Of a stretch of 64,000 bases of DNA, positions 3,131 to 26,141 are shown in pieces. Both the position numbers and the translations under genes were made by a program. The notes under the pieces are model-generated. The model did no database searches. It saw only the letters and a program-made list of their open reading frames with translations, and was not told the DNA's origin. This DNA is from Escherichia phage BF17. Location: the sequence record MW822008.1. One strand, 5' to 3'. How positions within the stretch are numbered: the stretch's first letter is position 1; each line of letters opens with the position of its first letter.

Positions 3131-3709
3131 ATGAATGTATTAGAATTAAGTACTAAGCTGATTAGTATGCGTAATGAGTGGTACGATTGGTTTTATAATG
3201 GTACTGATATGAATTTTTCAAAATATCCATTTATGGAATCAGGATGTGATTCAAGATACCGCTGGTTGAGCAAAAGTGATTCTGGTTTACATATTAGAAT
3301 CGATGATAGTGGTCGAGGAATTATACACGATTTACTTCAAGTTGATCAATTCGTCCATGACAATTGGTGTGATAACGATCCATACCTTGGAAATATGATT
3401 TATATAAGTGAAGATGATTGCGTATTCGTTATCCAGCGACATGGTAATTCTATGTTTTATGTAGCAGACAGCAGTACACCAGAAGGTGCAGCAGCCGATG
3501 GACTTATGCCTAAGATTGATATATTGGAATTTGGATTACCTGAGCACTTCCAGATTAGTACTTTATACGATATTCCACCACTTGAGTTCTTTGAAGAATT
3601 TAAATTGTACTTCAATGATCTTCAAAAATTGAGTACTGATAGACGCATTGAAATAACTGTTAAGTACATGGACGGAACGAAATTAACCGATACGGGGATA
3701 GAATTTTGA
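3131..3709 (+). CDS. hypothetical protein
   Basis: 192-aa ORF. Confidence 0.55.
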   Translation: MNVLELSTKLISMRNEWYDWFYNGTDMNFSKYPFMESGCDSRYRWLSKSDSGLHIRIDDSGRGIIHDLLQVDQFVHDNWCDNDPYLGNMIYISEDDCVFVIQRHGNSMFYVADSSTPEGAAADGLMPKIDILEFGLPEHFQISTLYDIPPLEFFEEFKLYFNDLQKLSTDRRIEITVKYMDGTKLTDTGIEF

Positions 3710-4395
3710 TTAAAGATTTAGATAGAATTTTATATGTACTAAGGGGTGTAATTACATTACATCCACAAATCAATCGAATTGAAAGTACATTTCAGTTGGA
3801 GTCAAGAGAAACTCCATATTCACATATATCAAATGTAGTTGGTTCACTCAGTACTGAAGACTCGTCTTACGATATTTGTGTATGTGAAGTACAACCAAGT
3901 TCGGATCTTGGATTTGCTATTTTTGATAAAAATCAAAATCTCATTAGTATGTTTCAGTGCAATAATCCTTTTTGGAAAACATGCCTGTATCCAGAGTGGG
4001 CTATGCTTGATCCAACCAAGAGTACCATTAAAGTTTATGACTCTAAAAATGATGAAGTCGTTATTGATTTAGATGAGTCAATGTCAGAGGAAGAACACTT
4101 TCAGCTAATGATGATGCGTGCTATGCCTGAATACAATGCAATGATTAACACAGTGCAATACATTAAGGATACCATGCCAGCGTTGCGTACACATGAGTTT
4201 TGTCATCCGGTATTGTATGAACATCTAGATTTAGACTTCAGTACTATTAAATTTAAAGATAGTGTTAAAAAATATATTCAAGAGAATGTTAAATTTGATT
4301 TTATTAGTACTATGAACAATAATCCAAAAACTAATTTTAGGCATCAGTACAATGAATCTTTGTCTAATGGACGTGATACCAGTTGGTGGAAATAA
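3706..4395 (+). CDS. hypothetical protein
   Basis: 229-aa ORF, ATGA overlap with upstream gene. Confidence 0.55.
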   Translation: MIKDLDRILYVLRGVITLHPQINRIESTFQLESRETPYSHISNVVGSLSTEDSSYDICVCEVQPSSDLGFAIFDKNQNLISMFQCNNPFWKTCLYPEWAMLDPTKSTIKVYDSKNDEVVIDLDESMSEEEHFQLMMMRAMPEYNAMINTVQYIKDTMPALRTHEFCHPVLYEHLDLDFSTIKFKDSVKKYIQENVKFDFISTMNNNPKTNFRHQYNESLSNGRDTSWWK

Positions 4396-4396
4396 T

Positions 4397-4660
4397 ATGA
4401 ATATTCAAGATAGATTACAATTACTGTACACACTTGAACAGGCTGCTTATGATCTTGTTCGAAAAATCTCAGATGAACTACCTAAAGGAACTAAAGTTCG
4501 TGTACGTGAGATGAATTATTTTTCTGGAGTAATTGAAGAACAAGTACTAACAGTGAATAAAGTAACATACTATGAATCTGAGTTGTCTATTCAGTGTGAA
4601 TCTGATGATGGATTAATATCATATTATGGAACTGATGTAGATATAGAGGTAATAAAATGA
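4397..4660 (+). CDS. small hypothetical protein (paralog family)
   Basis: ORF 4352..4660 trimmed to ATG after upstream stop; motif GTKVRVREM. Confidence 0.5.
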   Translation: MNIQDRLQLLYTLEQAAYDLVRKISDELPKGTKVRVREMNYFSGVIEEQVLTVNKVTYYESELSIQCESDDGLISYYGTDVDIEVIK

Positions 4661-5799
4661 CCCTTTTGCAAATATATGAAGATTTAATGCACTTATGTAA
4701 TACAAACGATGCATTCTTTTATGTGGATCATAAAAGTCCTGCTGGTGGCACGTATCGTGTATTCAGTTATCGTCTAGCATCATACACTGATTTCATGCAA
4801 CCAAATGCGTTGGAAACCCGTGGCTCTATGTGGGAAATTGATGAAGAAGGTGACATGATACGTTGTGCAGCACGTACAATGAAAAAGTTCTTCAATGCTT
4901 ACGAGAATCCTGCTACAATGTTCCCTGCTAACACCACATGCGATGACATTGCGGTAGTGATGCCTAAGTTGGATGGCTCGATCATCAGTACTTATCGTGA
5001 TAATGATGGTGAGATTCGTTGTAAATCACATACTGCATTGTATTCTGACCATGCGATTAACAGCACTCGACTTATTAACGAGAACCAGAATTTGTATCAG
5101 TACATCGACGAAGCGGAACGTTTAGGTTACACAGTTAATATGGAGTATACAAGCCCAGAGTACCGAATTGTATTACCATATCAGGTAGAACAACTGTTTG
5201 TACTGAACGTTCGTCATCGTGTGAGTGGTGAGTTGCTTTGTGGTAAAGCACTACGTGATAAGTTTCCATGTCTTGCACAGTACAGTACTAATATGACTGG
5301 AAAAGATATTCATCACACTTTTCCGGTACGAAATACCTTCCGTGAAAGCGTGGAGGAAGTTCATAAAATGCTTGATATTGAGGGTTTTGTGTGCATCCTA
5401 AATAATGGGACAATGTGTAAAATAAAGACTGACTGGTACAGTTCATTACATCTTACAAAAGATAGTATTATTATTGATTCTCATTTATATGAAGCAGTAT
5501 TAAATGGTTCAAGTGATGATTTAAAACAATTGTTCAGTACTGATGAATATGCTATGCAAAAGATATTAAGAATGGAACAATTGGTATTTTCGTGCTATAA
5601 TGCATTACAAGATGAAGTAGAAAGCTTCGTCAAGGAACACAAGCACTTGGAGCGAAAGGAATTCGCAATGAAGGTTCAGGAGTGTTTAACTAATGAACTG
5701 AATCGTCAGGGCTTGGCCTTTGCAATGTATAACAATAAGAAAGTTGATTACAAAGAGACTCTTATAAAATACATGAAAATTGTACTAAAGGATTTTTAG
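4657..5799 (+). CDS. rnlA: RNA ligase 1 (T4 RnlA-like)
   Basis: 380 aa; N-terminus, FFY, YRVFSY, LE.RG and KxDGS nucleotidyl-lysine motif align with T4 Rnl1 (recalled from memory). Confidence 0.85.
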   Translation: MTLLQIYEDLMHLCNTNDAFFYVDHKSPAGGTYRVFSYRLASYTDFMQPNALETRGSMWEIDEEGDMIRCAARTMKKFFNAYENPATMFPANTTCDDIAVVMPKLDGSIISTYRDNDGEIRCKSHTALYSDHAINSTRLINENQNLYQYIDEAERLGYTVNMEYTSPEYRIVLPYQVEQLFVLNVRHRVSGELLCGKALRDKFPCLAQYSTNMTGKDIHHTFPVRNTFRESVEEVHKMLDIEGFVCILNNGTMCKIKTDWYSSLHLTKDSIIIDSHLYEAVLNGSSDDLKQLFSTDEYAMQKILRMEQLVFSCYNALQDEVESFVKEHKHLERKEFAMKVQECLTNELNRQGLAFAMYNNKKVDYKETLIKYMKIVLKDF

Positions 5800-16974: not shown

Positions 16975-17670
16975 ATGGTTGAACAATTCATGTTTGGTGG
17001 TTATGCTAATGGCGAAGTACGTAACATTTCTATTCCTTACGTAGTTGAGAAAGTTAATGGTTCAGAACGTACATATGATCTAGCATCTCGTATGATGCAA
17101 GACCGTATCATTTTCCTTGATACTGATTTCAATGATCAAATGGCACATATCATCAAACAACAATTGGTATGGTTAGACTCACAAGGTGATTCCCCTATTA
17201 CATTCTACATTAGTTCACCGGGTGGTTCAGTACACGCAGGTTTGGGTATTGCAGATGTTGCTAAGTCTTGTATTTCGCCAATTCGCACTGTAGTAATGGG
17301 CTATGCAGCATCAATGGGTTGCTATACACAATCTGTTATTGGGACTAAAGGTTTCCGTTTAGGTGGTAAACGCTCATACTTCATGTGTCACCAAGTAAGT
17401 TCTGGTACACAAGGTCTAATTACAGACCAGAAGATTTCCCTACAACATTCTGATGCACTGAATACATTGTTGACCAAAGAAATTGCAGAAGCTGTAGGTG
17501 TATCACATGAACAATTACTAAAAGATGCTGACCGCGATTTGTGGTTAAATGCAGAAGAAGCACTTGAATATGGTGAACATGGTTTCATTGATGGTATTAT
17601 TCTTGGTCCACGTAACGAAGAAGGCAAGTACTTAGTTAAGCGTCGCGGTGGTGTAGAAGAGTGGGTGTAA
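16975..17670 (+). CDS. clpP: ClpP-family serine peptidase
   Basis: 231 aa; RIIFL, SSPGG, GYAASMG (Ser), MCHQ (His), RD..L.A.EA.EYG align along the whole length with bacterial ClpP. Confidence 0.8.
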   Translation: MVEQFMFGGYANGEVRNISIPYVVEKVNGSERTYDLASRMMQDRIIFLDTDFNDQMAHIIKQQLVWLDSQGDSPITFYISSPGGSVHAGLGIADVAKSCISPIRTVVMGYAASMGCYTQSVIGTKGFRLGGKRSYFMCHQVSSGTQGLITDQKISLQHSDALNTLLTKEIAEAVGVSHEQLLKDADRDLWLNAEEALEYGEHGFIDGIILGPRNEEGKYLVKRRGGVEEWV

Positions 17671-20795: not shown

Positions 20796-20824
20796 TTGAC
20801 AAAACATCAGTGGTATGATATGAT
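20796..20824 (+). promoter_or_regulatory. sigma70-type promoter
   Basis: TTGACA - 17 nt - TGaTATGAT. Confidence 0.5.
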
Positions 20825-20885: not shown

Positions 20886-20914
20886 TTTGACTTAAGTGTT
20901 TAAGTACTATATTA
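20886..20914 (+). promoter_or_regulatory. sigma70-type promoter
   Basis: TTGACT - 17 nt - TATTAT, 37 nt upstream of ATG 20951. Confidence 0.5.
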
Positions 20915-20950
20915 TTTATATCTTCCTAAACAAAATTGAGGACTTGTTAT

Positions 20951-21559
20951 ATGAAAAGACTATGGCTTGAAGTGATACAAGCAGCAATGTTTCTATTGTT
21001 AATAAATTTTCCAGCCAGTGCTGGTATTGAAAGTAAAAATGTGATAAAGTATAATCCTGAAACCCGAAATGTATATTTCATATCAGATATTACAGATGGG
21101 TCACTCAAGAGAATGATAGAGTTGTATGATAAAGAACACTATGATACCATCACAATTACATCTCCTGGTGGTGATTTTGATGCAGGTATTCGAATGGCAA
21201 ACTTTGTTAGAGACAATGGGATAAATTTAATTGTTTCTAGGTATTGCAATTCAGCATGTACTGTGGTATTCTTTAGTGTATCTCCCGAAAAGCGATATAT
21301 GACAAATCGCTCAGTACTGGGTCTTCATAACATTTCGATTAAAAGTAATGTTACTGATGGTGATAATTCATTTGTGTCTGTAAGACAGTTATCAACTTTT
21401 ACCGAAGAAATGGCAACAAAGGTAGGTTTCCTTTTTTCACTATATGCAGCAAATGGAATCCCACCAGAAGTTCTATTTAGAGTTAGTCGTTCTCGTGGTG
21501 AAGATGTTGTAATATTAACAAAACCAGAACTGGTTTTTTACGGTTCAGTCAAACAATAA
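20951..21559 (+). CDS. secreted ClpP/S49-fold peptidase-like protein
   Basis: N-terminal signal peptide (hydrophobic core then ASA); ITSPGGDFDAG, CNSAC, KRYMTNRSVLGLHN align with ClpP Ser/His region. Confidence 0.5.
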   Translation: MKRLWLEVIQAAMFLLLINFPASAGIESKNVIKYNPETRNVYFISDITDGSLKRMIELYDKEHYDTITITSPGGDFDAGIRMANFVRDNGINLIVSRYCNSACTVVFFSVSPEKRYMTNRSVLGLHNISIKSNVTDGDNSFVSVRQLSTFTEEMATKVGFLFSLYAANGIPPEVLFRVSRSRGEDVVILTKPELVFYGSVKQ

Positions 21560-21629
21560 AAATAATTAAAATAACAGGATGATTATGATGTACTTCCTTT
21601 GTTATTAATTATATTGAGATTATATAACT

Positions 21630-21890
21630 ATGACAAACATCCAAAACTTGACATCTATTATTTTTTATGCTACTGTAGTAATGTATGCTACAGTTATTTT
21701 TCTAACAGTTTTCATTTACAAAGATTATCGTAATGGCTTTATTGATTCAACTACAATGAAGTTCAATTCAAAATTCGAAGCAATAATTTATTATGTACTA
21801 TCAACTTCATACTTGGTGTGCCTAATGTTGTTAGGAGCACTAATTTATATCTTATACACAACATTATTTGCAATTGGAGCTATTTTATGA
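21630..21890 (+). CDS. membrane protein (3 predicted TM)
   Basis: 86-aa hydrophobic ORF. Confidence 0.5.
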   Translation: MTNIQNLTSIIFYATVVMYATVIFLTVFIYKDYRNGFIDSTTMKFNSKFEAIIYYVLSTSYLVCLMLLGALIYILYTTLFAIGAIL

Positions 21891-22480
21891 CCTGTATTAT
21901 TGCACACACTAACGGAGTAAGTTCTTTTATTGCTGGGGATAAGTTAGGAAGCAATGGATTTACAAAAACTGTTCAAACTGAACCAAAGGTATTCGAGAAA
22001 GAATTTATCAAGTTACATGATGATGGACTAACTAGAACTAAAGAAGTAATGGCATTGGGTTATACTACATCATTTCGTATGGGTCAGTTGTTAAATTATA
22101 ACCTTAATTTACCTGAACAAGATGCTAGTCAAACATTTTCACAATATTTGGTTCTTAAAGTTATTCCAATTATTCGTCAAATGTTTAAAGAAGAATGGGG
22201 TGCACGAGATGCATCACAAGATGTAGGTGGTGGACAATTTATCATTCTCCACAATCATACAATCTATGAAGTTCAAGAAGACTTTTCAGTACTACAACCT
22301 AAAACAAGAATTACCGCAGTAGGTAGTGGGACATATCATGCAATTGCAGCAATGCAAGCATATATTGAAGTTGAGAACGAATCTAAAAAACCACTACACG
22401 AACGTATCAAATCAATTTTTAAAATTGTTAGTGATAATGTAACAAGCGTAAGCGAAGAGTTTGATGTTTTAAAATATTAA
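21887..22480 (+). CDS. HslV-like Ntn-hydrolase (proteasome beta-type peptidase)
   Basis: ORF 21818..22480 trimmed to ATG overlapping upstream stop; begins M-T-CIIAHTNG..IAGD and has AVGSGTYHAIAAMQA, matching HslV TTIVSVRRNG..IAGD and AIGSGGPYAQAAARA. Confidence 0.6.
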   Translation: MTCIIAHTNGVSSFIAGDKLGSNGFTKTVQTEPKVFEKEFIKLHDDGLTRTKEVMALGYTTSFRMGQLLNYNLNLPEQDASQTFSQYLVLKVIPIIRQMFKEEWGARDASQDVGGGQFIILHNHTIYEVQEDFSVLQPKTRITAVGSGTYHAIAAMQAYIEVENESKKPLHERIKSIFKIVSDNVTSVSEEFDVLKY

Positions 22481-22507
22481 AAGTACTAATATTATAAGAG
22501 AGAATAG

Positions 22508-22702
22508 ATGATGGCATACACAATTTATGAATGGGTTTTGAGTTTTTTTATAGTTTTTTCTATTGTTGTAATTTATAACAATACTAAATGCTTATATAGG
22601 GACTTGAAATCCAATGGTTATCACAAAGATAATAATTTTATGTATGCCTATCATATTGGAATCATTCTGTTATTATCAATATATTTAATTGGTTTTTTAT
22701 AA
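22508..22702 (+). CDS. small membrane protein
   Basis: 64 aa, two hydrophobic helices. Confidence 0.45.
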   Translation: MMAYTIYEWVLSFFIVFSIVVIYNNTKCLYRDLKSNGYHKDNNFMYAYHIGIILLLSIYLIGFL

Positions 22703-22705
22703 GGA

Positions 22706-23464
22706 TTGAATATGATATCAGAAAAATTTATAAGCAATGAAGGTAAAAAGCGATTACTGATTATATCAGGTGCAGGACTTTCTGTTGAAAGTGGTATGGA
22801 ACCTTTTCGATTTGATGATGGTTTGTGGGATACATTTAAAATTAATGATGTATGTAACATTGCTAGTTTAACTACAAAATATCATGTTGTTCATTCTTTC
22901 TATAATACATTACGTGTAAAATTGGGACAATGCGAACCGAATGCAATGCATTATTTTATAAAATCGTTAGAAGATCAATATGGTGATTGCTTCCTTCATA
23001 TGACTTCTAACATGGACGATCTTTATACTCGTATTGGTGGTCATGAGCTTAAACTTCATGGAAACTTGTGCGAAGTTATTGAAAATTATAGTATCAATTC
23101 CGATGATTATAATGTTATTAACTGCGGATACGAACCATACATACCAAAACATGATGTTTTTGCTAAACCAAATGTAGTAATGATTGGAGAATATCATCGT
23201 TATGTTGATGGTATTCGCTTACCAATTTACGAAGAACGAAATAATGTGTTGAAATCTCTTAATGAAAATGATACAGTTATTGTAATTGGTAGTAGCGATA
23301 CAGTACTGGTATGGTCGAGATTAGCAGCAGCATTACCATGTTATAGTGTTAATGTTAACATTCGTAAAAATGATAATGATTTTTTGTTTAATGAAAAAGT
23401 TATCAAGCCAGCAACCAAAGCAATACCGCATCTAGAGACTATAATTAAGGAACGTATGAAATGA
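22706..23464 (+). CDS. Sir2-family (sirtuin-like) protein
   Basis: GAGLSVESGMEPFR NAD-binding motif near N-terminus, HG motif (LKLHGNL), C-terminal VIVIGSS Rossmann strand. Confidence 0.6.
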   Translation: MNMISEKFISNEGKKRLLIISGAGLSVESGMEPFRFDDGLWDTFKINDVCNIASLTTKYHVVHSFYNTLRVKLGQCEPNAMHYFIKSLEDQYGDCFLHMTSNMDDLYTRIGGHELKLHGNLCEVIENYSINSDDYNVINCGYEPYIPKHDVFAKPNVVMIGEYHRYVDGIRLPIYEERNNVLKSLNENDTVIVIGSSDTVLVWSRLAAALPCYSVNVNIRKNDNDFLFNEKVIKPATKAIPHLETIIKERMK

Positions 23465-24012
23465 GTGTTAAAGAAGTTCCCTTTGGTGAATATGGCACAC
23501 GTGCAAATTTTGTATTTTGTTATTTCTTTGCAAGAAAATGCAACCCTTACAAAAACTATGAGTTGAATGATATACCAGAAGTAAATTTAGTATTACTGCA
23601 ATTACGATGGGATGGTCTTCTTGGTGGATGTGGTGGAACCGTAGAAAGTACTGATATCTCACTAGAAGATGCGTTGCGTCGTGAAGTTCAAGAAGAAATG
23701 GATTACAATATTTTTGTTTCCCATCTTCGACCACTCAAAACTTTTGAAATTTACCCAGGTGCAAACAGTCACAGTTTTAGCTATGAAGTAACCTATGACG
23801 AGTTGAAACACATTAGAGATGGATACACTAATGCTAAACATGCAAGTGCAGAAGTTGCTGGTGTAAATTTATGTCATATTTCTCGTTATTCTAAGGGACA
23901 AAATCGAGAAGCGGGATATAATAATCTTATGACACAGAACTTCATCGGTACAGCAAAACAAGAATTGGAGTATCTGGTTCAAAAAGAAAACTTACTAATT
24001 AGTTATCTATAG
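23461..24012 (+). CDS. Nudix hydrolase
   Basis: Nudix box GGTVESTDISLEDALRREVQEEMDY (G-x5-E-x7-REVxEE). Confidence 0.7.
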   Translation: MSVKEVPFGEYGTRANFVFCYFFARKCNPYKNYELNDIPEVNLVLLQLRWDGLLGGCGGTVESTDISLEDALRREVQEEMDYNIFVSHLRPLKTFEIYPGANSHSFSYEVTYDELKHIRDGYTNAKHASAEVAGVNLCHISRYSKGQNREAGYNNLMTQNFIGTAKQELEYLVQKENLLISYL

Positions 24013-24021
24013 GAGTTTAAC

Positions 24022-24342
24022 ATGTCTTACTCAATGTTTTTGGATGATATTCGTGATGCAAATCTATATTATCCAAACCAAGATATGGTGGTATGTCGTG
24101 ACTTTAAAAGTGCATGTGAATATGTTATTGAAAATGGAATTCCAGCATTTGTATCATTCGACCATGACTTGGGTGATGTGAGCGAAGACGAAAAGACTGG
24201 ATATTCTTTTGCTAAGTTTCTTATTGATTATATGTTTGATAATAATATTAAAGAACCGTTTGAGTACTTTGTTCACAGTAGTAATCCTGTTGGTAAAATT
24301 AATATTGAAACATACTTAAACAATGGATTTAACGCATTATGA
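24022..24342 (+). CDS. hypothetical protein
   Basis: 106-aa ORF with conserved-looking acidic motifs (FDHDLG, HSSNPVG); no family assigned. Confidence 0.5.
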   Translation: MSYSMFLDDIRDANLYYPNQDMVVCRDFKSACEYVIENGIPAFVSFDHDLGDVSEDEKTGYSFAKFLIDYMFDNNIKEPFEYFVHSSNPVGKINIETYLNNGFNAL

Positions 24343-24641
24343 TTCAAACACACATCAAAAGTCTTATTTGTACTGTTCTGTTAGGTGCAGGAGTTCTTTG
24401 GTTCGGACAGTATCACGAGAACACTAAGCGTACCAACATTCACTACAATACCGCAGAAGTTGTTAGTTTAGGACAATGTAGCGAGTCCAAATGTTCATTT
24501 ATGTATAAAACCCAAAGTGGTGAAGTACGTAATGGACTATCAAGAGAACCAGTTTCAATTGGTCAACTTGTTTACCAGGAGTGCTGGGAAGAAAAGGTTC
24601 GAGGTTCACGTTGCTATGTTGAATACGAACCAAATATGTAA
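24339..24641 (+). CDS. hypothetical protein with N-terminal hydrophobic segment
   Basis: 100-aa ORF, ATGA overlap. Confidence 0.5.
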   Translation: MIQTHIKSLICTVLLGAGVLWFGQYHENTKRTNIHYNTAEVVSLGQCSESKCSFMYKTQSGEVRNGLSREPVSIGQLVYQECWEEKVRGSRCYVEYEPNM

Positions 24642-24701: not shown

Positions 24702-26141
24702 ATGAAAAAATATACAATTGACACAAACGTACTACTATCTGACCCGAATGCATCTATTGCTTTTGATGGTGCTGCAATCATTCTACCATTTACAGTACTG
24801 GAAGAATTGGATTCAATTAAGAGTCGTAATGTAGATGTTTCACGCGATGCTCGTGTTGCTATTCGTAACATTGAAGCAATTATTGCAGATGCATCACATG
24901 ATGAGATTAGTAGTACTGGTGTTAATATTGCTGATGTTCATACCAATATGAATCCTGATAGCAAATTGTTTGTTATTACAAACGAAGAAGCTGAAGCACT
25001 AATTCGTACTAAAGGTTCAGAAGAGAAAGTTCAAACCCTTCTCAAAAGCACAGTACCTGATGATAAAATCATTCTGGTAGCTTTAGCAACAGAATCAGTA
25101 CTGGTAACTCGTGATATCAACATGCGTATCAAAGCACTAAGTTATGGTGTCGAGGTACAAGATTATCGCCATGATATTGTTATTGGTGATAGTGATTTGA
25201 TTCACATTGGTCAACACCATTTGGAAATTAATTTTTGGGAAGTATATAGCAACTTATCCAATACTAATATTCAATCCGAACAAGTTGGTCGTCGTTTGTA
25301 TCATTACATTTCTAAAAGCTTGATTGAACATTTGCTTCCACAAAATCTATGCATCGGTGATTATCTATATGATGATGCAGACGTATTATTTGTGTACGAA
25401 GGTCAATCAGCAATTGAGGAAGATGATGGAACACTAACACCAGAAGATATTTTGGTATTCCAAGATATTGGACAATCAGTAGCTTTACGTGCTAAAGTAT
25501 GGGATATTAAAGCAAAGAATATCCAACAAGCACTCGCCATCAACAGTATTCTCGATCCTGATGTACATCTAACAGTACTGCTAGGTTCTGCTGGTACTGG
25601 TAAAACACTAATTACGATTGCTACTGCATTAGAATTAGTACTGGAAAAACGTAAATACGACCGAATCATCTTCTCTAAAACTCAAGACTCACAGTTTGAA
25701 GATATTGGTTTCTTGCCAGGTTCAGAAGCAGAAAAAGTGATTCCATTCTGTGGAGCCGCAATTGACGCGTTAGAGTTTCTTCATAAAGATGATGCTAACC
25801 CACAAGGTAGTATTGAAGAGATTATGAAACGTAATGTTATTCAATTTAAAGCACTAAACTTTGTACGTGGACGTTCATTCACCAACACTATTCTAGTAGT
25901 TGATGAATTCCAAAACATTACACCTGCACAAGCCAAAACAATCTTGACACGAGCAGGATTAAACTGTAAAGTAGTAATTATGGGTAACTTGAGTCAGATT
26001 GACAGTAAGTTTATTAGTCCTGTTAACAGTGGTTTGACATATGTAACTGAGAAGTTTAAAGATTGGGCAGGTTGTCGTGTCATCGAACTTGAAGGTGTTG
26101 TTCGCTCACCACTAGCTGAATTTGCTGAAGAAAATATGTAA
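24702..26141 (+). CDS. phoH: PIN-domain PhoH-like ATPase
   Basis: 479 aa; N-terminal PIN-like region (IDTNVLL), Walker A GSAGTGKT, Walker B VVDEFQN typical of PhoH/YlaK. Confidence 0.85.
   Translation: MKKYTIDTNVLLSDPNASIAFDGAAIILPFTVLEELDSIKSRNVDVSRDARVAIRNIEAIIADASHDEISSTGVNIADVHTNMNPDSKLFVITNEEAEALIRTKGSEEKVQTLLKSTVPDDKIILVALATESVLVTRDINMRIKALSYGVEVQDYRHDIVIGDSDLIHIGQHHLEINFWEVYSNLSNTNIQSEQVGRRLYHYISKSLIEHLLPQNLCIGDYLYDDADVLFVYEGQSAIEEDDGTLTPEDILVFQDIGQSVALRAKVWDIKAKNIQQALAINSILDPDVHLTVLLGSAGTGKTLITIATALELVLEKRKYDRIIFSKTQDSQFEDIGFLPGSEAEKVIPFCGAAIDALEFLHKDDANPQGSIEEIMKRNVIQFKALNFVRGRSFTNTILVVDEFQNITPAQAKTILTRAGLNCKVVIMGNLSQIDSKFISPVNSGLTYVTEKFKDWAGCRVIELEGVVRSPLAEFAEENM

Follow-up and report, generated by a model that had tools for sequence, protein, structure and literature searches.

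Neighboring genes for a predicted exported ClpP-fold peptidase and an HslV-like threonine hydrolase probably serve independent accessory functions in an Asteriusvirus jumbo phage

Do two peptidase genes that lie close together in a phage genome, interleaved with genes for small membrane proteins, encode the parts of a single system? The question is raised by Escherichia phage BF17 (MW822008.1), of which we analyzed a stretch of 64,000 nucleotides; this whole stretch is called the window, and all coordinates refer to it. Between positions 20951 and 22702 the window carries genes for a ClpP-like protein, a small membrane protein (TM86), an HslV-like protein and a second small membrane protein (TM64), all on the same strand (Table 1). 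A first-pass annotation made from the sequence alone had proposed that they act together in the degradation of host proteins or against host defense, and all of the motifs that it quoted for the two peptidase genes are indeed present where it placed them. Our analysis leads to a different reading: the locus probably encodes two independent accessory peptidases that are not part of the virion, one in the periplasm and one in the cytoplasm. Over 3.2 kb around the locus, the sequence is 99.6% identical with Escherichia phage ECO103 4-12-1, 99.5% identical with PBECO4 and 91% identical with 121Q, and on these grounds the source phage belongs to Asteriusvirus, RaK2-like jumbo myoviruses of about 350 kb.

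The translation of the ClpP-like open reading frame (ORF) begins with MKRLWLEVIQAAMFLLLINFPASA, continues beyond the predicted cleavage point with GIESKN, and contains ITSPGG at residues 69–74, NSAC at residues 100–103 and KRYMTNRSVLGLHN at residues 114–127. Single-sequence searches of PDB, Pfam and NCBIfam with both peptidases gave sub-threshold or spurious matches, and profiles and structure prediction were needed. For the ClpP-like protein, Pfam PF00574 scored 17.5 bits against a gathering cut-off of 20.2 and covered residues 59–129 only, and the NCBIfam ClpP models scored at most 25 bits against cut-offs above 200. Close homologues number 16, all in related jumbo phages, and a profile search of 1.84 billion representatives returned 3466 relatives at E<1e-3, of which 142 make up the family alignment used here. 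When the profile is aligned with PDB entries, S101 falls on the catalytic Ser of ClpP and H126 on the catalytic His, and the protein has the ClpP/crotonase fold. C99, S101 and C103 are each kept in 141 of the 142 relatives and H126 in 139; G73 and G74 are invariant and S71 is kept in at least 139. The ClpP fold and Ser/His pair assigned to this gene in the first-pass annotation are thus borne out. Since two near-invariant Cys residues flank the nucleophile in a secreted family, it is probable that C99 and C103 form a disulfide. The C-x-S-x-C arrangement was absent from the cytoplasmic ClpP-fold proteins examined and is a convenient signature of the exported ClpP-fold family.

Several observations bear on the export that had likewise been predicted for this protein. 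The N terminus consists of an n-region MKR, a hydrophobic core of 13–17 residues and a c-region P-A-S-A followed by G, with a Kyte–Doolittle peak of 1.79 at residues 8–26. In 11 homologues reaching down to 42% identity, F20 and P21 never vary, and A22 and A24 are kept in at least 90%. A hydrophobic, signal-like N-terminal segment is found in 118 of the 142 distant relatives (83%), 21 of these 118 having a lipobox, and in the AlphaFold2 (AF2) model the N-terminal helix is detached and followed by a low-confidence linker at residues 19–28. Taken together, the conserved PASA site, the hydropathy peak and the family-wide hydrophobic N termini make Sec export of the protein a well supported prediction.

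The wider family, dominated by bacterial secreted proteins and lipoproteins, shares four features, and the ClpP-like protein has all of them: an N-terminal signal or lipobox, S-x-G-G, C-x-S-x-C and a His about 25 residues further on. The relatives are named in their sources either 'hypothetical protein' (on the Ferrimonas balearica chromosome) or 'ClpP class serine protease'. Five tested bacterial-type relatives of about 250 residues had no Pfam family, and two nearer relatives of about 200 residues gave weak PF00574 matches of 22.4 and 19.4 bits (cut-off 20.2). The phage protein thus belongs to a large family of bacterial and phage ClpP-fold proteins, secreted ones and lipoproteins, that is so far unnamed.

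We propose that the product of this gene would be exported by the Sec route, probably be cleaved after A24 and fold in the periplasm into a ClpP-type domain. There Ser101, seated in a C-x-S-x-C elbow that is probably locked by the disulfide, would work with His126 and the S-x-G-G oxyanion loop as an ATP-independent serine hydrolase. By analogy with the exported clan-SK peptidase SppA, the enzyme would most likely trim peptides or exposed segments of envelope proteins. Some points weigh against this proposal. The call of a signal peptide comes from hydropathy and the −3/−1 rule only. Within the signal region (20951–20983), Glu7 and Gln10 of a K-E-x-x-Q motif (residues 5–10) do not vary among phage homologues as distant as 42% identity, which is atypical of a cleavable signal and could point to an uncleaved anchor with a function of its own or to a specific interaction. 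The family alignment has no conserved acidic residue at or near the position of ClpP Asp171, the third member of the triad, and activity is for this reason deduced from the Ser/His pair.

A different role in the phage would be that of a capsid maturation (prohead) protease which is not exported at all. Several GenBank records do name a 52%-identical homologue 'head maturation protease', and the best NCBIfam match of the relatives, a weak one, is Clp_rel_HeadMat. The signal sequence and PASA site are conserved, however, the family consists mostly of bacterial secreted proteins and lipoproteins, and the NCBIfam scores lie far below cut-off. Virion content argues in the same direction. Mass spectrometry of virions of the related phage phAPEC6 detected gp347 (75% coverage) and gp341c (30.9%), and the table of virion proteins contains neither gp345c, the HslV-like protein, nor gp346c, the ClpP-like protein, and includes a separate 'prohead core scaffold and protease', gp227c (PMC7247149). 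A prohead role for the exported protein is scarcely credible on this evidence, and because gp345c and gp346c were not detected both peptidases appear to be non-structural. RefSeq applies the label 'head maturation protease' to another protein of the window, the cytoplasmic-type ClpP homologue further upstream, and in view of the separate gp227c this label is probably wrong. The presence of a separate cytoplasmic ClpP in the phage had been noted before, and the full-length Pfam match of this homologue agrees; the phage may thus encode a cytoplasmic ClpP.

The HslV-like ORF starts MTCIIAHTNG...IAGD and contains AVGSGTYHAIAAMQA. As a single sequence it gave no match to Pfam PF00227 at E<=1, and the NCBIfam HslV models scored far below their cut-offs (TIGR03692, 18.9 against 157.75 bits; NF003964, 20.0 against 137) and matched residues 119–171 only. 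A T5-like homologue with 30% identity matches Pfam Proteasome over its full length, with 38.3 bits against a cut-off of 22.4. We found 76 homologues, and in an alignment of 37 of them, reaching down to 27% identity, M1, T2, C3, D18, K34, G146 and G148 are invariant. A profile of these 37 matched E. coli-type HslV over its full length in PDB (E=4.8e-8), with MT(T/C)I, Asp17, Lys33 and the G-S-G loop in register with HslV, and hhalign gave 95% probability against E. coli HslV. Across 80 viral loci K34, G58 and G146 are present in every case and T2, D18 and G148 in 79 each. The AF2 model (predicted local distance difference test score, 92.6) has long helices at residues 63–72, 84–104, 149–161 and 170–184, a four-residue helical turn at 163–166, and the alpha-beta-beta-alpha sandwich of the N-terminal nucleophile hydrolases. 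The N-terminal threonine nucleophile and glycine-rich loop of HslV and proteasome beta subunits, as recognized in the first-pass annotation, are therefore well founded, and by fold prediction and residue conservation the protein belongs among the Thr-1 hydrolases of the proteasome family, and its catalytic set is complete.

By the established specificity of methionine aminopeptidase, removal of the initiator Met would expose the Thr of this protein. We propose that the product is cytoplasmic, that the host methionine aminopeptidase would remove Met1, and that the Thr, as N-terminal nucleophile, would work with Asp17, Lys33, a Gly47 equivalent and the G-S-G loop as in HslV, in BPH (the beta-proteobacterial proteasome homologue) and in beta subunits of the proteasome. 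The product would most likely form a ring and act as a peptidase on unfolded proteins or peptides, without an unfoldase encoded by the phage. Cys3 was considered as nucleophile, with 'MT' as a propeptide, and was ruled out, since the register places Thr2 at position 1 of HslV and the T5-like members have Ala3. A Cys follows the Thr nucleophile in 74 of the 80 viral loci; position 147, equivalent to proteasome Ser129, is a Cys in 57 of the 80 and a Ser in 20, as it is in the window protein. These residues amount to conserved thiol chemistry by the active site.

No HslU homologue was found in the window, as had been noted before, and among Escherichia phages only 4 records contain an HslU-like sequence, compared with 57 that carry the HslV-like gene. 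HslU-like ATPase genes are found in other jumbo phages, namely in 46 Erwinia phage records (Ea35-70, Caitlin, SNUABM) and also in Salmonella SPAsTU. Because the phages with HslU-like genes are not those with this HslV-like family, the two seem to be distributed independently. Could the phage protein then hijack the host unfoldase HslU (ClpY), so that a hybrid ATP-dependent protease redirects host proteolysis? In sequence no family is closer to the protein than HslV, the phage has no HslU of its own, and the listed phage hosts (Salmonella, Escherichia, Vibrio, Aeromonas, Klebsiella, Xanthomonas, Geobacillus and Yersinia) presumably carry HslUV or CodWX. In E. coli HslV the pocket for the HslU C-terminal tail includes F54, F57, Q114 and K80 (PMC6429459). 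Aligned by hhalign, the phage protein has F63 and Q137 in the places of F54 and Q114, but G66 and I94 in those of F57 and K80, and Q137 is not conserved across the viral family. K28 of E. coli HslV, which we take to be a further pocket or anchor position, aligns to a Val. Against a hijack also stand the low NCBIfam HslV scores and the top structural match, which is BPH. Moreover, in the survey of phage-borne 'group I' proteasome homologues (PPH, AAH and CPH) by Fuchs, Alva and Lupas (2021), no AAA+ partner was found for these phage proteins, and no informative gene context (PMC8665760). On balance we regard docking to host HslU as unlikely.

Aeromonas phage 4L372XY has two proteasome-family genes in tandem, at positions 3501–4052 and 4070–4897 of its locus. 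One encodes an MTC-type protein of 183 residues, and the other a protein of 275 residues that is more HslV-like, starts (M)TTIAY and has an acidic C-terminal extension of about 100 residues. A hetero-oligomeric, proteasome-like phage particle is a possibility here.

One or both of the window's peptidases might instead be catalytically dead relatives of their folds with a scaffold or binding role. A conserved acidic triad residue was not found for the ClpP-like family, and the scores stay below the curated thresholds; both would fit such a role. The catalytic Thr, Ser and His are near-invariant over wide divergence, however, together with D18, K34, G58 and GxG in the HslV-like family and S71 and the Gly pair in the ClpP-like one. 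Such conservation is not expected of pseudoenzymes, and we find the idea very unlikely.

Having established what the two proteins are likely to be, we return to whether they belong together. We surveyed the neighbors, within 6-kb flanks, of the HslV-like gene in 80 IMG/VR viral loci. The exported ClpP-like gene lay within 6 kb in a single locus, that of 121Q itself. A transmembrane protein was the upstream neighbor in 2 of 54 cases and the downstream neighbor in 3 of 51, compared with 12% of small ORFs generally, so membrane-protein neighbors are not enriched. No conserved partner gene was found around the 80 loci; the most frequent neighbor family occurs in 10 of 69. One distant HslV-like gene has a gene for a ClpP-fold protein (260 residues) two genes upstream, but it is not an orthologue, having no signal peptide and E=0.099. 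Phage records with the HslV-like gene number 197, mostly T5-like Epseptimaviruses, in which it lies among nucleotide-metabolism genes; the exported ClpP-like gene occurs in 49. In RaK2 and Erwinia phage Hallingskeid the ClpP-like orthologue occupies the same place, after a dCMP deaminase gene and a structural gene, and is directly followed by a cytidylyltransferase/NMNAT-like gene and then Nampt, with no membrane-protein or HslV-like gene there. Conversely, the HslV-like gene stands without the exported ClpP-like gene in SE_PL and in T5-like, Aeromonas and Xanthomonas phages. Thus the two genes do not travel together, and a conserved module of two proteases and membrane proteins, as first proposed, is not supported.

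In such a module both proteases would degrade host proteins or counter defense, and the membrane proteins might tether or regulate them. The genes do share a strand and are tightly packed, and within Asteriusvirus the order ClpP-like, TM86 ... HslV-like, TM64, Sir2 is kept. The stop codon of TM86 also overlaps the start of the HslV-like gene in the window, so co-operation specific to this lineage is conceivable. These facts count against independence. In JNE01, however, TM86 and the HslV-like gene are separated by a reverse-strand gene for a 302-residue protein. The predicted compartments of the peptidases, periplasm and cytoplasm, argue against joint action, and PADLOC returned no match for either protease, the membrane proteins or Sir2; its only match was a weak one to the Nudix protein (PDC-S07, E=0.0022). 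Given also the separability of the two genes across phages, we judge the module to be quite improbable.

Independence of the two peptidases fits the wider gene order. Salmonella phage SE_PL has NMNAT and Nampt first, then two small genes and the HslV-like gene, next a pair of genes that includes Acb1, and after these Sir2, Nudix and PhoH. The SE_PL homologue of the anti-CBASS protein Acb1 (positions 4537–4983 of its locus; Pfam PF23474, E=1.7e-16) is encoded between the HslV-like gene and Sir2, a spot that corresponds to 22480–22706 of the window. Because Acb1, NMNAT and Nampt are found there in SE_PL, and an NMNAT-like gene and Nampt in RaK2 and Hallingskeid, the island appears to be a variable region for counter-defense and NAD metabolism in RaK2-like phages. 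The NAD-salvage block is absent from this position in the window, and the adjacency of the two peptidase genes, which is confined to Asteriusvirus, looks like an outcome of this: the genes for NAD salvage that lie between them in related jumbo phages would simply be missing here. The counter-defense-type genes of the relatives also count in favor of the module. A role of either peptidase in host takeover or anti-defense would be guilt by association with the Acb1 and Nampt/NMNAT genes that relatives hold in the same island.

The small membrane proteins deserve a closer look, since the protein between the peptidases had been described as having three transmembrane segments. TM86 is indeed a predicted membrane protein; a firm count of three did not hold. 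Hydropathy gives two clear peaks, at residues 10–28 and 62–80, and a C-terminal stretch of 37 residues with room for two helices, so that two to three segments are predicted. A JNE01 homologue is 44% identical (E=2e-25), no family was found in Pfam, PHROGs or NCBIfam, and TM86 is absent after the ClpP-like orthologues of RaK2 and Hallingskeid. Membrane proteins encoded upstream of the HslV-like gene in T5-like phages and in SE_PL were considered as relatives and proved unrelated, the T5-like one being a DUF3307 protein. TM64 has two predicted transmembrane segments (hydropathy peaks at 4–22 and 46–64), a JNE01 homologue with 35% identity (E=1e-8) and a weak match to PHROG 18969, 'membrane protein' (E=0.0027). 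PBECO4 and 121Q have no annotation for it, but its ORF is intact in 121Q, as is that of TM86, and we take both to be real genes, neither of them assigned to a family.

The remaining features of the region are collected in Table 1. The ATG of the ClpP-like ORF has GAGG ahead of it, and that of the HslV-like ORF, which overlaps the TM86 stop codon as ATGA, is preceded by GGAG. A sigma-70-like promoter candidate upstream of the ClpP-like gene would fit early transcription by host RNA polymerase; it is only a hint and no proof of it, and the regional total of such sites is not above shuffled expectation. Downstream of TM64, the overlapping Sir2 and Nudix genes are directly followed by a gene for a 'cyclic-phosphate processing receiver' (cREC_REC) protein (Pfam E=1.5e-22), and the trio suggests NAD/ADP-ribose or RNA-end metabolism. 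The product of the 100-residue ORF called 'membrane protein' in RefSeq has no Kyte–Doolittle peak of 1.6 or more. PIN-PhoH (gp341c) and the Ig-like protein are the two neighbors found in purified phAPEC6 virions, and a virion-packaged PhoH-like ATPase is unusual.

Table 1. Features in and around the two-peptidase locus, in window coordinates (aa, amino acids)
Feature	Position	Strand	Remarks
Cytoplasmic-type ClpP homologue	16975–17667	+	Pfam PF00574, E=4.2e-41, full length
Ig-like protein, 125 aa	20349–20726	−	= phAPEC6 gp347
Sigma-70-like promoter candidate, TTGACA-17-TATGAT	20796–20824	+	11/12 consensus match, TG extended −10; intergenic, 5' of ClpP-like gene
Second sigma-70-like promoter candidate	20887–20915		5' of ClpP-like gene
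Putative exported ClpP-fold Ser/His peptidase, 202 aa	20951–21559	+	PBECO4 gp097, 121Q gp473, phAPEC6 gp346c
Predicted Sec signal peptide, residues 1–24	20951–21022	+	predicted cleavage A24/G25
Catalytic-serine elbow, C99-N-S101-A-C103	21245–21259	+	codons checked
His126, equivalent of ClpP catalytic His	21326–21328	+	profile alignment
Small membrane protein TM86, 86 aa	21630–21890	+	121Q gp474; hydropathy
Putative T1-type N-terminal-threonine hydrolase, HslV/BPH-like, 197 aa	21887–22480	+	PBECO4 gp096, 121Q gp475, phAPEC6 gp345c
HslV-like residue Thr2	21890–21892	+	
HslV-like residue Asp18	21938–21940	+	
HslV-like residue Lys34	21986–21988	+	
HslV-like G-S-G	22322–22330	+	
Small membrane protein TM64, 64 aa	22508–22702	+	between HslV-like gene and Sir2
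Sir2	22706–23464	+	Pfam match
Nudt16-like Nudix hydrolase	23461–24012	+	Pfam match; overlaps Sir2
cREC_REC domain protein	24022–24342	+	Pfam
100-aa ORF	24339–24641	+	RefSeq 'membrane protein'
PIN-PhoH	24702–26141	+	Pfam

The first-pass annotation had regarded the arrangement as not yet characterized. Both genes are in fact already annotated: in 121Q (KM507819, 2014) a 'protease (ClpP-like)' and a 'protease (ClpYQ-like)' are 92% and 90% identical to the window proteins, and the PBECO4 proteins, named 'protease' and 'peptidase HslV family' in RefSeq, are 100% (ClpP-like) and about 99% (HslV-like) identical. In PHROGs the ClpP-like protein matches phrog_26024, 'protease' (E=3.6e-119), and the HslV-like protein phrog_1040, 'peptidase HslV family' (E=4e-24). 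With the 2021 survey of homologues, these records precede us, and neither fold call is new. Searches of the literature brought up no functional work on an HslV-like protein from a phage. Because the calls are public and the proposed module is unsupported, the finding of two proteases adds little as first stated. The families themselves are another matter. Hundreds of phage genomes encode proteasome-like Thr-1 peptidases, those of the easily manipulated T5-like coliphages among them, and the substrates, partners and phenotypes of these enzymes are undescribed. The exported C-x-S-x-C ClpP-fold family has thousands of bacterial and phage members and neither a Pfam model nor a characterized member, so that one biochemical study of the exported protein would annotate a large family. 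There is a small chance that the locus holds either an undescribed family of periplasmic serine peptidases put to use by RaK2-like phages or a Thr-1 peptidase docked to host HslU. The former would cleave a protein of the host envelope, such as a receptor, a factor that times lysis or a defense sensor seated in the envelope, and the latter would, as a hybrid ATP-dependent protease, remove host regulatory or defense proteins. Both the capture of HslU and an envelope-directed role of the exported enzyme are experimentally tractable.

How, finally, do the two proteins compare with the systems nearest to them? The exported protein differs from ClpP (MEROPS S14) in its signal peptide, its score below the Pfam gathering threshold, its apparent lack of an Asp171 equivalent and its C-x-S-x-C elbow, and its handle region is short and poorly modeled. 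ClpP proper is a cytoplasmic tetradecamer served by ClpX or ClpA, whereas the phage protein keeps an N-terminal signal peptide and, being predicted to be periplasmic, would have no AAA+ partner or ATP available. Peptidases of the SppA/NfeD type (MEROPS S49) use a Ser–Lys dyad; in the exported family no conserved Lys was found and the His is kept at the ClpP position, and the protein is a single domain of about 180 residues with no detectable match to the SppA family. As no conserved acidic residue and no conserved Lys were found, it would be a Ser/His enzyme that differs from S14 ClpP as well as from S49 SppA.

The HslV-like protein, for its part, is only about 17–23% identical to HslV (ClpQ), which is the peptidase partner of HslU in bacterial HslUV and forms a dodecamer from two hexameric rings, and scores far below the NCBIfam cut-offs for that family. 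It also differs from HslV in lacking an adjacent or phage-encoded HslU, in leaving most HslU-pocket positions unmatched, in having Cys and not Thr after the nucleophile and, in the Asteriusvirus branch, in an insertion of 18 residues at about residues 37–54. By these sequence comparisons it is not HslV proper. PPH has about 140 residues and is without helix H2 (PMC8665760); with 197 residues and both helix pairs present, the phage protein is too long to be a PPH. It may belong to AAH, to CPH (reference sequences WP_035979212 and WP_008185288) or to a cluster of its own. BPH, a protein without a known unfoldase, is its top structural match and structurally as close to it as HslV.

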